Shown here one piece after another: positions 1,833-24,472 of a stretch of DNA of 64,000 nucleotides (its first letter is position 1; every line of letters begins with the position of its first letter). A program made the position numbers and the translations under genes. Below the pieces are notes generated by a model, which searched no databases, was not told where the DNA came from, and was given only the letters and a program-made list of their open reading frames with translations. The stretch is from an uncultured Acidimicrobiaceae bacterium (GTDB lineage Bacteria > Actinomycetota > Acidimicrobiia > Spongiisociales > UBA5794), in NCBI GenBank assembly GCA_964387145.1, contig CAYLVM010000001.1, forward strand, positions 52,549-116,548, in the 5' to 3' direction.

Positions 1833-1990
1833 GGGAGTACCTCCTGATCCGTGGTTTCCCGCCGAGGAAGTCGCCTACAAGAACGAAGGCAGCGCGACGT
1901 ACGCTGCGCGAAGTTCGACCTGACACACCTCGATACGGTGGAAAGGTGGGAAGCAGGCGCCTCCTCTTGCGTCGTTTGTGGCCGTAATAG

Positions 1991-2134
1991 TACCTGGTAT
2001 CTGGTACTTAGTACATGGAGGATCGCCCGATGGGCGGATTCGGTTGCTGGGTTCACAGCTCACAGTTCACAGTCGGAAACCCGGACGATTCCTGGATGAC
2101 CAACTGCTACAGGTAAACGGAGAACGACCGCTCC
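1991..2134. repeat. Structured intergenic element E1 (TGGTAYT heptamers plus a conserved ~120-nt core), between the ribH stop and the infC start
   Basis: Shares its core with E2 at 23940-24070: GATCGCCCGATGGGCGGATTCGG / TTCACAG repeats / CGGAAACCCGG / GGTAAACGGAGAACGACCGCTCC. Compensatory substitutions occur in the stems. A diverged inverted copy lies at 5624-5846. Confidence 0.7.
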
Positions 2135-2149
2135 CCGTGCGCGCATCCT

Positions 2150-2620
2150 CTAGGTATCGCGAATAGCCTGGAGCGTTCGTGTCGCGACAACGACGGCTTC
2201 CGCCGCTTCCCGGCCCTTGTTGTCCGGCCCCGGCTGGGAGCGGACCAGGGCATCGTGTGCGTTTCTCACGGTGAGGATCCCGAACGCCATCGGGACACCG
2301 GTATCGAGTTGGGCCCGCATGATGCCCTCCGATGCTCTGTGTGCAATGTGCTCGTAGTGGTCGGTGTCGCCTTCAATCACGGCACCGAGACACACGACGG
2401 CGTCGTAGCCGCGTTGGGCGACAGCGAGAGCGGCCAGCGGCAGTTCGAAGGCGCCGGGCACGTCGACGCTGAGGATCTCTGTTGCATTCGCGGCTTCGAG
2501 GAAGGCGAGCGCGCCCTCCTTGAGCCCGGTCGTGACCACCGCGTTGAACGATGCCGTGACGACGGCGACCCGCAGACCCTCGGCGCTGACGCCTGTGTCG
2601 GCTTGTTCATCGATCCGCAT
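2150..2620 (-). CDS. ribH: 6,7-dimethyl-8-ribityllumazine synthase
   Basis: LRVAVVTASFNAVVTTGL...YDAVVCLGAVIEGDTDHYEHIA is the lumazine synthase fold. The real start is the internal ATG at 2620; the track ORF 2150..2944 is over-extended. Confidence 0.9.
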   Translation of the reverse strand: MRIDEQADTGVSAEGLRVAVVTASFNAVVTTGLKEGALAFLEAANATEILSVDVPGAFELPLAALAVAQRGYDAVVCLGAVIEGDTDHYEHIAHRASEGIMRAQLDTGVPMAFGILTVRNAHDALVRSQPGPDNKGREAAEAVVVATRTLQAIRDT

Positions 2621-3827: not shown

Positions 3828-4432
3828 CGTGACGCTCCGATCATGCGTTCGACGTACTTGGCGATGACGTCGACTTCCAGGTTGACGGCGGTACCGGGCT
3901 GTGCTTCACCGAGCACGGTCACGGCAAGCGTGTGCGGGATCAGGACGATCTCGAACCATTGTGTGGGTTCTCCTGGGTCGCTGACCGCCGTGACGGTGAG
4001 GCTCGTACCGTCCACGGTGATCGAGCCCTTCTCGACCACGTAGCGCCCGAGTGCCTGGGGGAACTCGATGTGCATGCGCGATGCGTCTCCTTCCGCTTCG
4101 ATCGAACGGACGTACCCGACGCCATCGACGTGGCCTTGCACGATGTGGCCGTCGAATCGGCCTTCAGCGGGCATCGGTCGCTCGAGGTTCACCGAGTCAC
4201 ATGCCGTGAGCGATCCGATCGTGGTGCGTTCGAGTGTCTCTTGGACGGCGTCGACCGTGAACGATCCTTCTCCGCGTTTCGTCACGGTGAGACAGACCCC
4301 GTTGACCGAGACCGAATCCCCGATACCGAGTCCCGTGAGGCTGGACGATGCGTCGATCGTCACCTTCCGGCCCTTGGGGATGTCCGCGATCAGGGTGACC
4401 GTTCCGAGTTCGGAGACGATTCCGGTGAACAT
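3824..4432 (-). CDS. ribE: Riboflavin synthase alpha subunit
   Basis: [12 protein letters not shown]...VNGVCLTVT / two lumazine-binding repeats. Confidence 0.92.
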
Positions 4433-5478: not shown

Positions 5479-5485
5479 CAAGCGT

Positions 5486-5603
5486 CCCCTTTCTTCCATC
5501 CGGACTTTCACCGTCGACTCCGGATTTCCACCGGATCGGCCCCGTAGTGGGGTTCGCGGGCTTTGACCGCCGGTCGGGAGTTGCTCCCTGCCCCGAAAGA
5601 GGT
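5486..5603 (-). promoter_or_regulatory. FMN riboswitch (RFN element) in the ribD leader
   Basis: The minus-strand RNA reads CUUUCGGGGCAGGGAGCAACUCCCGACCGGCGGUCAAAGCCCGCGA...GGUGGAAAUCCGGAGUCGACGGUGAAAGUCCGGAUGGAAGAAAGGGG. This matches the conserved FMN aptamer blocks. The ribD Shine-Dalgarno AAAGGGGA lies in the 3' strand of P1. Confidence 0.9.
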
Positions 5604-5623
5604 ATGTGGCACATACGGTAGTG

Positions 5624-5846
5624 CCTGGTACTTGGTATCCGGAACCCGGAAGAGAGCAACCCGACCGAGCGCGGAGTGCCAAGGCGACGGGCGAAGAGGG
5701 AGCAGTTGTCCTCCGTTCACCACTTACCGAGAGAAGCGGAACGTTCAGGAACAGTCAGGTGTCCCGGCTGCGAGCTGTCGACCCGCCGACCGGGTCCCCT
5801 GAGCCTCCAAGTACCAAATACCAAGTACCAAATACCAAGTACCAGG
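5624..5846. mobile_element. MITE-like element E3 with perfect 15-bp terminal inverted repeats (CCTGGTACTTGGTAT) and an internal TGGTAYT/14-nt tandem array
   Basis: The left TIR at 5624-5638 equals the reverse complement of 5832-5846. The internal GGAGCAGTTGTCCTCCGTTCACCACTTACCG block resembles the reverse complement of the 3' ends of E1 and E2. It sits 5 nt after the GGDEF gene stop and immediately upstream of the FMN riboswitch. Confidence 0.6.
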
Positions 5847-5851
5847 TACCT

Positions 5852-6778
5852 CTACGTCCGCCTATCCACCTGGTAGTTCGTGCCGGGGGTTCGCTTCGCG
5901 ACTTCCTTCATCTCGGATGCCACTGCAGAAGCTTCCCACTCGCTCGAAAGGCTCTTGTGTTCCGCCGTGGCGACACCCATCGAGAGAGAACAGATCGGGA
6001 ACGCGTGCCGCTCTCCCCTTCTGTCTGTCACCTCGATGTAGCCCTGGAGTGCATCGGCTGTGTCATAGTGTTCGAGGATGCCGTCGTCGAACGTCACGAC
6101 GACCTCATCACAGAACGGCTTCATGTTCTCGGCTCGTACGATGGCGACGAAGTCGTCACCACCGACGTGACCGATGAACGCATCCTGCTCCCCCGCAACA
6201 GCAGCCGCATTCAGCAGCACTTTTGCAGTGAACTTGATGACCAGGTCCCCTCGCATGAATCCGTAGTGGTCGTTGAATGCCTTGAAGTTGTCGAGGTCGG
6301 CGTGGACGAGAGCGAACGGATCTCCCTGTGCCACGCGGTCTTCGAGCTCGGCCGCGATGCGAAAGTTCCCGGGCAGGCCGGTCAGTGGGGAGAGATCGCG
6401 CATCTGTTGGGATCGCCGCAACACGGTCTTGACCCTCGCGATCAACTCTTCGAGGTCGAACGGTTTGGTGATGTAGTCGTCTGCGCCGAGGTCGAGGCCC
6501 CGCACACGGTCCTCAGCGAGACTCCTTGCCGTGAGGACGATGACCGGGATATTCGCCGTGGGCGGATCGCTGCGCATGCGCCTCAGGACGGTGAGTCCGT
6601 CGATCTCTGGCATCATCACGTCAAGAAGCATCAGATCCGGGGGGGCCGCTGCTGCCTTCTCGAGGGCCTCTCTGCCGCCGCCTGCGAGTTCGACCTCATA
6701 GCCGTCGAGTTCGAGGTTCAAACGCACGAACTGGAGAATGTCGGGGTCGTCATCCACGATGAGAATCCGCTCAGCCAT
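5852..6778 (-). CDS. Response regulator with receiver domain plus GGDEF (diguanylate cyclase-like) domain, PleD-like
   Basis: The REC domain reads ILIVDDDPDIL...LMLLDVMMPEIDG...TKPF. The GGDEF domain reads DLDNFKAFNDHYGFMRGDLV...HVGGDDFVAIV, so the signature is GGDDF. No histidine kinase is adjacent. Confidence 0.85.
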   Translation of the reverse strand: MAERILIVDDDPDILQFVRLNLELDGYEVELAGGGREALEKAAAAPPDLMLLDVMMPEIDGLTVLRRMRSDPPTANIPVIVLTARSLAEDRVRGLDLGADDYITKPFDLEELIARVKTVLRRSQQMRDLSPLTGLPGNFRIAAELEDRVAQGDPFALVHADLDNFKAFNDHYGFMRGDLVIKFTAKVLLNAAAVAGEQDAFIGHVGGDDFVAIVRAENMKPFCDEVVVTFDDGILEHYDTADALQGYIEVTDRRGERHAFPICSLSMGVATAEHKSLSSEWEASAVASEMKEVAKRTPGTNYQVDRRT

Positions 6779-7446
6779 CAGCTTTCAGCACCTACGATCG
6801 ATCTCAGTTCCTGTACCGTGCTCAGGGGATCATCGGCTCCGAACACCGATGATCCCGCAACGAACACGTTGGCGCCTGCGGAGCGCGCCTGGCCCGCCGT
6901 CTGGAGGTTGATGCCTCCGTCGACCTGTATATCGGCGGGAAGTGCCCGCGAGTCAACGGATTCTCTCAACGACCGGATCTTTGGGAGGACGGCATCGATG
7001 AAGTGTTGACCACCAAAGCCGGGTTCGACGCTCATGACGACCACCATCGAGCAGAGATCGAGGTAAGGATCGATGGAAGCGACCGGCGTCGAAGGATTCA
7101 CGACGAGACCGAAATCGAGACCGAGATCGCCAGCCTCTATAGCGACGGGCGTAGGATCCGGTACGGCTTCGATGTGGACGGTGACACCGTCCGCACCGGC
7201 CTCTTTGAACGCACCGAGGTACCGCAGAGGGTCGGTGATCATGAGATGGCAGTCCAGGTACAGGTCTGTTGCGCCACGCAGGGAGCGGATCACCGGAGGC
7301 CCGAGCGAGATGTTCGGAACGAAGTGGCCGTCCATCACATCGACGTGGAGCATGTCGATGTCACCGGCAATCACGGCGATCGAGTCGGCGAGATAGGCGA
7401 AATCAGCTGCAAGTATGGACGGTGCGATTGCGATACGATTCGTCAT
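6778..7446 (-). CDS. rpe: Ribulose-phosphate 3-epimerase
   Basis: IAPSILAADFAYL...HVDVMDGHFVPN...VMSVEPGFGGQ. Confidence 0.95.
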   Translation of the reverse strand: MTNRIAIAPSILAADFAYLADSIAVIAGDIDMLHVDVMDGHFVPNISLGPPVIRSLRGATDLYLDCHLMITDPLRYLGAFKEAGADGVTVHIEAVPDPTPVAIEAGDLGLDFGLVVNPSTPVASIDPYLDLCSMVVVMSVEPGFGGQHFIDAVLPKIRSLRESVDSRALPADIQVDGGINLQTAGQARSAGANVFVAGSSVFGADDPLSTVQELRSIVGAES

Positions 7447-23833: not shown

Positions 23834-23869
23834 ACAGAAACAGAAAAGCCGCACATCGAGATGTGCGGC
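23834..23869 (-). terminator. Attenuator terminator hairpin (GCCGCACAUC-UCG-GAUGUGCGGC) plus U-tract
   Basis: A 10-bp GC-rich stem and a U-rich tail read on the minus strand. Confidence 0.75.
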
Positions 23870-23914
23870 AGCCGGCGTGTGCTCATGTTCGTTCCTTCTC
23901 GGCCTCACGGGACC
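23834..23914 (-). promoter_or_regulatory. PyrR-dependent transcription attenuator in the pyrR leader
   Basis: The minus-strand RNA reads AACCCGGUCCCGUGAGGCCGAGAAGG, which matches the PyrR box UCCNGNGAGGC. It is followed by the intrinsic terminator GCCGCACAUCUCGAUGUGCGGC plus UUUUCUGUUUCUG, 25 nt before the pyrR AUG. Confidence 0.8.
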
Positions 23915-23939
23915 GGGTTAAAGGGTGCTTGTTGGAGCC

Positions 23940-24070
23940 ACTGTAGTACCGGGATCAGCGAATGGGCAGCGGTCGCTGAGTTGACAGTTCACAGTCGGAA
24001 AGCCTGGCCGTTTCTGGGTGCTTGCGCTTCGCCGGCAAACGGTAAACGGAGAACGGAGAACGACTGCTCC
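23940..24070. repeat. Structured intergenic element E2 (paralog of E1), abutting the nusB stop and upstream of the pyrR attenuator
   Basis: GATCAGCGAATGGGCAGCGGTCGC / TTGACAGTTCACAGTCGGAAAGCCTGG / GGTAAACGGAGAACGGAGAACGACTGCTCC align with E1 at 2018-2134. Confidence 0.7.
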
Positions 24071-24472
24071 TTATCCGCTGGTCTTCTCGGTGTCTGATCG
24101 TCCCGGTTCTTCCTTCGCAACGGCGACCGCTGAAAGGATGCCGTTGACGAACGCGCCACTCTTTGCGGTCGAGAACTCTTTGGCGAGTTCCACGCATTCA
24201 TCGATGACGACGCCGAGCGGCACGTCGGTGAAGAGCAGCTCGAAGGTGCCAAGGCGCAAGATGTTCCGATCGACTGCAGGCATGCGCTCGAGGCGCCATC
24301 TCGTGGAGGCGGCGCCTATCGCTGCGTCGATGACCTCTTTGTTCAGCCAGGCACCTTCTGCAAGTGATGCAGCCCTCGCCGAGACCTTCGTGATGTCAAT
24401 GGCATCCATCGATCTGGCGTCGGCGGCGTAGAGCGCCCCAAGCGCGCCAATCCTCGCTGCGTCGGCCGTCAT
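24071..24472 (-). CDS. nusB: Transcription antitermination factor NusB
   Basis: ...WRLERMPAVDRNILRLGTFELLF... Confidence 0.9.
   Translation of the reverse strand: MTADAARIGALGALYAADARSMDAIDITKVSARAASLAEGAWLNKEVIDAAIGAASTRWRLERMPAVDRNILRLGTFELLFTDVPLGVVIDECVELAKEFSTAKSGAFVNGILSAVAVAKEEPGRSDTEKTSG

Follow-up and report, generated by a model that had tools for sequence, protein, structure and literature searches.

A probable MITE-like repeat family associated with GTAC heptad arrays in uncultured Acidimicrobiia-like actinobacteria

BOX elements of Streptococcus pneumoniae and the BIMEs and REPs of enterobacteria are mosaic, modular intergenic repeats that vary in the number of their sub-units and often form clusters and lie in transcribed spacers. 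BOX modules measure 45-59 nt. Each REP is a palindrome in itself, has a 5' motif of the GTAG type and is linked to a RAYT transposase. The IS1031 group of the IS5 family has ends that read GAG and makes a 3-bp duplication. MITEs, defined as elements of 50-800 bp with TIRs of at least 10-15 bp, a TSD of 2-10 bp and no transposase, are represented in bacteria by families such as Correia/NEMIS, ERIC, RUP and Nezha (PMC11602168). The BrickBuilt MITE of Porphyromonas gingivalis carries a variable tandem array between a leader and a tail (PMC4596501), so that a MITE with such an array has a precedent. Heptameric intergenic repeats, which are over-represented in some bacteria, have been described in Xanthomonas (GGGAATC), Nostoc (GGGGAYT) and Calothrix, where their length varies between close relatives (PMC4692102). 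Among PIF/Harbinger elements, the eukaryotic relatives of IS5, Harbinger makes a 3-bp TSD (PMC12730594).

Here we describe a repeat family with three copies, E1, E2 and E3, in a 64,000-nt stretch of DNA, referred to below as the window. The three are likely, with a probability of about 0.8, to be old and partly decayed copies of a non-autonomous, MITE-like family of transposable elements, which occurs in an uncultured actinobacterium of Acidimicrobiia-like affinity and in its relatives; this assignment follows the names of NusB homologues, which come from MAGs of Acidimicrobiia or Actinomycetota. The family seems not to have been described before, yet it is a familiar kind of element, and what is unusual is its consistent association with 7-nt arrays. 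The present family is like BOX and the BIMEs/REPs in its mosaic build, its variable sub-unit numbers and its clusters in transcribed spacers, but its ends are classical TIRs rather than single hairpins. Membership in the REP/REPIN class was rejected because, on direct reading, the 17-bp ends are not self-complementary and the complementarity lies between two distant ends. As in the bacterial MITEs, the elements are small and non-coding, have TIRs and short direct flank repeats, occur as dispersed intergenic copies in subfamilies that share their ends, are polymorphic in insertion between strains and overlap the 3' ends of genes (PMC11602168). They differ from the described MITE families, to which no sequence similarity was found, in being embedded in GTAC heptad arrays and in containing two more arrays inside. 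BrickBuilt is alike in its variable array between leader and tail, its small inverted-repeat ends and its strictly intergenic location, but it has a single 23-nt minisatellite, whereas up to three different 7-nt arrays are found here, two of them outside the TIRs (PMC4596501). BrickBuilt also belongs to another phylum and has no sequence relation to the present family.

E1 is located after ribH and before infC (infC start at 1817), and E2 after nusB and before pyrR, all four genes being on the minus strand. The original prediction had recognised these two as intergenic copies of one element with collinear blocks, each adjoining the stop codon of the upstream gene, and all of this was borne out. 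The blocks follow the same order in E1 and E2 when read on the minus strand, and their similarity goes beyond chance: the exact 17-mer CAGTTCACAGTCGGAAA has two matches in the 64-kb window, one in E1 and one in E2 (0.14 expected by chance), AACGGAGAACGACYGCTCC is present in both, and nhmmer aligned the two copies with E=4e-10, at a global identity of 63%. The elements turned out to be longer than had been claimed, at about 1990-2150 for E1 and about 23950-24086 for E2, and they overlap the ribH TAG and the nusB TAA. The E1 core, which measures 133 bp from TIR to TIR (2018-2150, minus strand), is bordered on the infC side by a flanking heptad array (GTACCTG GTATCTG GTACTTA GTACATG; 1990-2017, minus strand) that was detected both by TRF (period 7, 4.1 copies) and by a scan for RTAYNNN arrays. 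Within the core lie the right TIR (GAGGATCGCCCGATGGG on the plus strand, 2018-2034), an internal (TTCACAG)3 array (2051-2073), the block AACGGAGAACGACCGCTCC (2116-2134) and a decayed left TIR (GAGGATGCGCGCACGGG on the minus strand, 2134-2150), which begins with the G that closes the ribH TAG (2150-2152), the flank providing the other two bases of this codon. The E2 core of 137 bp (23950-24086, minus strand) contains the right TIR (23950-23966), CAGTTCACAGTCGGAAA (23985-24001), an (AACGGAG)2.6 array (24045-24062), the block shared with E1 (24052-24070) and the left TIR (GAAGACCAGCGGATAAG on the minus strand, 24070-24086). This left TIR encodes the C-terminal K-T-S-G of NusB as well as the TAA stop (24071-24073), and in relatives NusB ends differently.

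The count of two copies had to be extended. A match to AACGGAGAACGACYGCTCC with two mismatches on the other strand (5699-5717) led to a third, inverted copy, E3 (5680-5852 with its array), which had been missed. On one side of E3 is the stop codon of a response-regulator-GGDEF (RR-GGDEF) gene and on the other an FMN riboswitch. With respect to the minus-strand genes on either side, its core (5680-5808, plus strand) points the opposite way to E1 and E2. It is more divergent, with decayed TIRs, and nhmmer aligned it to E1 and E2 at E=1e-10 to 1e-13. Its flanking heptad array of six units, (GTACCAA ATACCAA)n, to which no strand is assigned (5811-5852), ends at the RR-GGDEF stop codon (5852-5854), and a heptad-array remnant, also without strand (GTGCCTG GTACTTG GTATCCG; 5622-5645), lies on the riboswitch side in inverted orientation relative to it. 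On direct reading the two TIR arms agree at 11/17 positions in E1 and at 10/17 in E2; this degree of matching marks E1 as an old copy, and E1 and E2 are decayed copies whose own ends are poorly matched.

The search for copies in related genomes, which had been proposed with the original prediction, recovered about 30 further copies beyond the window, beside unrelated genes, in metagenome contigs and one MAG, Dive96_bin3.271. Scanning one genome per species with a common word gave four true copies, on four contigs of this MAG ('Actinomycetes bacterium Dive96_bin3.271'), while the other matches of the genome-contig scan with GGAGCRGTYGTYCTCCGTT were chance or coding matches and not copies of the element. 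Three further candidate loci (L004, L009 and L012) were rejected as an unrelated conserved coding stretch. The stretch of about 340 nt at L004:135-470, L009:290-630 and L012:3410-3750, which contains the probe word, is near-identical in an Actinomycetota MAG, Nigerium and Brachybacterium; it is seemingly the end of a coding region and probably belongs to a widely distributed mobile gene unrelated to the element. Scanning of metagenomes yielded 24 loci, inside which nhmmer added copies, and the resulting 50 or so matches correspond to roughly 30 distinct elements, several loci carrying two to five. Plasmid BLAST in distant mode with a canonical copy returned only sub-significant matches of 30-40 nt, a scan of viral contigs with the TIR returned eight single chance matches and no element, and in the literature the heptad string GGTACTT was met only in primers.

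Comparison of the copies revealed a common layout. A GTACNNN heptad array, (GGTACTT)n or its complement, is followed by the 17-bp TIR GAGGATSMGCGGATAGG, by GGAGCRGTCGTTCTCCGTT and a (YNCCGTT)n array, equivalent to (CCGTTYN)n, and then by a centre, after which come CCGGTTTCYGACYG, a (TGAACYG)n array, the inverted TIR and a second outer heptad array. GGAGCRGTCGTTCTCCGTT was the probe word of the search, so its strong conservation in the copies recovered is a matter of ascertainment and is not evidence of function. The TIR-to-TIR span of 112-203 bp falls within the size range of MITEs, and about 18 intact copies have the 17-bp TIRs as +/- pairs. Lengths differ between copies in steps of 7 nt, and a conserved reading frame could not survive such differences, so the family has no coding capacity. 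Subfamilies B (181-203 bp), C and D (112 bp) and a hairpin variant, H, have their ends in common and differ in their interiors. The hairpin variants at L050:5697-5840 and L043:60-207 consist of one TIR and (CCGTTYT)n, terminate in an inverted array, (ARAACGG)n, and are missing the second TIR; they look like fold-back rearrangements. At L048:2233-2832, L057:9751-10102 and L058:1728-2166, two or three elements of different subfamilies are arranged in tandem clusters with (TTGGTAC)3-4 between them. These clusters resemble BIME clusters, and assembly breaks are frequent there.

The orthologous sites of both E1 and E2 were found in an empty state. The E1 core is absent from the sister strain represented by L032, a different strain from that of the ENA assembly SONG20-1, where the end of ribH runs into a solo heptad array, (TACGTNN)n, at the position of the E1 flanking array, and then comes an infC leader nearly identical to that of the window. 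E2 is absent from the nusB-pyrR spacer in three related species (L066, L067 and L068; NusB 78-84% identical), in which this spacer measures 137 nt instead of the 262 nt of the window, and the alignment shows a clean gap exactly at E2. Conversely, in L036 the E3 heptad array is interrupted by an additional 112-bp element that has good TIRs and TTG/TTG flanks. With three copies in the window, about 30 elsewhere and filled and empty sites for E1, E2 and the L036 element, the family is, with high confidence, an interspersed, insertion-polymorphic repeat. The arrays vary by whole units as well: strains differ by one GGTACCT unit in the E3 array, the remnant at 5622-5645 has one additional TCCAGAT unit in L032, and the E2 copy of the SONG20 strain has four more TGAACTG units. 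Such variation in whole heptads is a potential strain marker.

We then compared the flanks of the 18 elements with recognisable ends, which read RTAY-NNN-[element]-NNN-RTAY. RTAY was present at positions -7 to -4 in 16 of these copies and at +4 to +7 in 17. The flanking NNN are identical in direct orientation in 12/18 and inverted in 2/18, and 6/18 disagree with direct identity; this count is confounded, since most copies lie inside identical heptad arrays that give identical flanks without any duplication. L052 has CAT/CAT flanks and no array nearby, and together with the other non-array cases, L040 and L049, it suggests a true 3-bp target duplication. A 7-bp target duplication was rejected because L052 fits a 3-nt repeat only, and the idea that the heptads are excision footprints was dropped, since GTAC is unlike the GAGG...CCTC termini of the element. 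Of the 33 arrays of at least three RTAYNNN units in the 323 kb scanned, 28 lie within 60 nt of an element, the chance expectation being 0.03 arrays per 64 kb; a few solo arrays exist, the empty E1 site among them. The arrays of Xanthomonas, Nostoc and Calothrix are likewise 7-nt, intergenic, length-variable and occasionally found as inverted pairs, but those are G-rich quadruplex formers not described as flanking a TIR element, whereas the unit here is GTACNNN and 28/33 arrays adjoin the element (PMC4692102). This tight tie to GTAC heptad microsatellites is a concrete starting point for asking why some bacterial genomes accumulate heptameric repeats.

These patterns can be accommodated by a transposition mechanism, to the specific form of which we attach moderate confidence. 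A DDE-type transposase, supplied in trans from an element not seen here, would bind the TIRs and insert the element into RTAY-NNN-RTAY sites (similar to GTAC-NNN-GTAC) through a 3-bp staggered cut, by which the central 3 bp would be duplicated. GTACNNN heptad arrays would present many overlapping sites of this kind and could serve as multi-site landing pads, in or beside which elements accumulate, and replication slippage may then lengthen or shorten both the flanking and the internal arrays. Effects on neighbouring genes would be side effects. As the TIR holds TAG/TAA, insertion at the 3' edge of a gene would provide a new stop codon, as at nusB and ribH, whose 3' ends the elements have remodelled; the copies lie upstream of the L20-like and PyrR leaders and are part of neither. 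The GAG at the start of the TIR and the apparent 3-bp target duplication are reminiscent of the IS5/IS1031 subgroup and Harbinger, from which subgroup the present family differs in that no transposase gene was seen with it. A derivation from IS5/IS1031 may be considered only as a lead.

Several observations run against the MITE-like reading. No autonomous IS bearing these TIRs turned up in about 400 kb of related DNA, the window and roughly 320 kb of loci included, in the plasmid collection or in the viral contigs; weak TIR-like matches in L041 and L046 lie inside the spans of long ORFs called by a heuristic caller. The 3-nt duplication is confounded by the arrays and does not hold in 6/18 copies, and the reading leaves the origin of the heptad arrays without an explanation. 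The remaining points, an orientation bias, one covarying internal pair and the folding of E1, are those on which other readings can draw.

We weighed the sequence evidence for a folded RNA. The original prediction had named three options, an ncRNA not described before, a motif of UTRs and a mobile repeat with structure, and had favoured a folded RNA tied to the operons downstream, citing differences that were said to be often compensatory; of these suggestions the mobile repeat is the part that held, and the folded RNA tied to the downstream operons is not. E1 folds better than shuffled sequences (z = -3.05), an observation in favour of an RNA and against a MITE, while E2 (z = -0.53) and a canonical copy (z = -0.08) do not. 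In an alignment of 24 copies, the RNAalifold consensus comprises merely 9 pairs, at -6.5 kcal/mol. The helix formed by the two TIRs is 74% paired in the 24 copies, against 35-44% for slid controls; when 3' letters were shuffled among sequences, however, the percentage paired was reached in 455/500 shuffles and the covariation score in 179/500 (0.176, against 0.172 in shuffles). It follows that the complementarity resides in the two consensus arms and that single copies do not compensate. TIR positions 7-8 are a constant mismatch, and the behaviour of the terminal arms is that of transposon ends and not of a selected helix. The CCGA/UCGG helix, which had been among the examples of compensatory change, is 65% paired in the 24 copies and shows no covariation, 325/500 shuffles doing as well. 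One internal pair does covary (alignment columns 29-122; AU 11, GC 10, GU 3, unpaired 0 in 24 copies); it pairs GGAGC[R]GTCG with CGAC[Y]G and varies largely along subfamily lines. The absence from Rfam that had been supposed was confirmed, as the element matched no family, either with the whole window at the gathering threshold or with E1, E2, E3 and four canonical-copy loci at E<=5. A tRNA/tmRNA scan found none, and no promoter or terminator consensus was found inside the elements.

A structured cis-regulatory RNA or sRNA, acting as a 3'UTR or 5'UTR motif to control the infC-rpmI-rplT and pyr operons, is very improbable on this evidence. It would account for the fold of E1 and for the position of E1 and E2, in the same orientation directly upstream of two regulated operons, and the lack of an Rfam match would make it new. 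The only Rfam matches nearby, however, all lie outside the elements. Just downstream of E1, upstream of infC-rpmI-rplT, is a sub-threshold L20_leader-like match (1875-1974, minus strand; 25.2 bits, E=0.011) with a terminator-like hairpin (1907-1889), and just downstream of E2 is a sub-threshold PyrR-binding-site match (23839-23928, minus strand; 36.3 bits, E=0.002) with a 9-bp GC-rich hairpin and a T-run (23869-23848); the third match is the FMN riboswitch (5484-5604, minus strand; 108.7 bits) in front of ribD. The L20-leader-like region is nearly identical in L032, which is without the E1 core, and the PyrR leader is conserved in L066, L067 and L068 despite the missing E2, so the proposed tie to infC and pyrR regulation does not hold. 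E3 is inverted, about 30 other copies lie beside unrelated genes, the heptad numbers vary freely, and the consensus fold and the CCGA/UCGG helix give no help. The empty orthologous sites largely refute regulation of these operons by the element. Even less credible, to the point that we would discount it, is a chance similarity of low-complexity, microsatellite-rich spacers: short tandem heptads make up much of each copy and can inflate apparent similarity, but the window copies align to one another at E of about 1e-10 to 1e-13, and in dozens of copies, drawn from independent assemblies, the TIRs and the blocks outside the repeats keep the same order.

An unlikely, though less remote, alternative is a host-domesticated element of the REP/BIME or BOX type, retained for a function that its hairpins or heptad arrays have at transcript or DNA level, such as stabilising the 3' ends of mRNA, insulating operons from one another or offering an array of binding sites to a host protein. 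The modular mosaic build, the variable unit numbers, the tandem clusters and the many copies directly at gene 3' ends fit such an element, as does the covarying internal pair. So does the orientation of copies in tandem gene contexts, 12 being co-oriented with transcription and 3 opposed (binomial p about 0.035, on heuristic gene calls from our own codon-usage caller), a bias that purely neutral insertion would not predict; the bias is weak. All copies are intergenic, in tandem, convergent and divergent contexts. Against such an element, some copies lie in divergent promoter regions (L029, L041, L049 and L050), single ends do not form REP-like palindromic hairpins, the elements hold no terminator or promoter consensus, the folding energies of E2 and a canonical copy are no better than those of shuffles, the TIRs of the window copies are decayed, and sister strains and related species lack the E1 or the E2 core. 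A related reading, about as doubtful, is that of a site-specific element that targets or generates GTACNNN 'landing pads' and whose arrays and cores now serve, by co-option, as modules in transcripts at the 3' ends of genes. It draws on the orientation bias, the donated stop codons and the repeat-derived spacer upstream of the FMN riboswitch, and, if it is true, actinobacteria would have their own equivalent of BIME/REP, working by a new logic of recognition.

Under the preferred MITE-like reading, what had the appearance of a conserved 'structured RNA', placed upstream of two operons under classic attenuator control, is repeat DNA, and a false lead is removed. The case illustrates how a repeat family can pass for an ncRNA: its blocks are collinear, and its inverted repeats give rise to changes that look compensatory. 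It also documents a MITE-like family, apparently undescribed, in uncultured marine or subsurface Acidimicrobiia-like actinobacteria.

The surroundings of E3 show further features. The spacer between the RR-GGDEF stop codon (5852) and the riboswitch is wholly repeat-derived, consisting of the E3 core and two heptad arrays (5605-5852), and either the rib promoter is itself repeat-borne or transcription of the operon continues from rpe-GGDEF. In this conserved gene string, rpe is separated from the rib operon by the inserted PleD-like RR-GGDEF gene (5852-6778, minus strand), and the opposite strand carries a PPK2 gene upstream of rpe; such company is unusual. Two short tandem repeats with periods of 14 and 12 (4306-4334 and 7104-7129) share the core CGAGACCGAA; both are inside coding DNA, one in the rib operon and the other in rpe or its antisense ORF.
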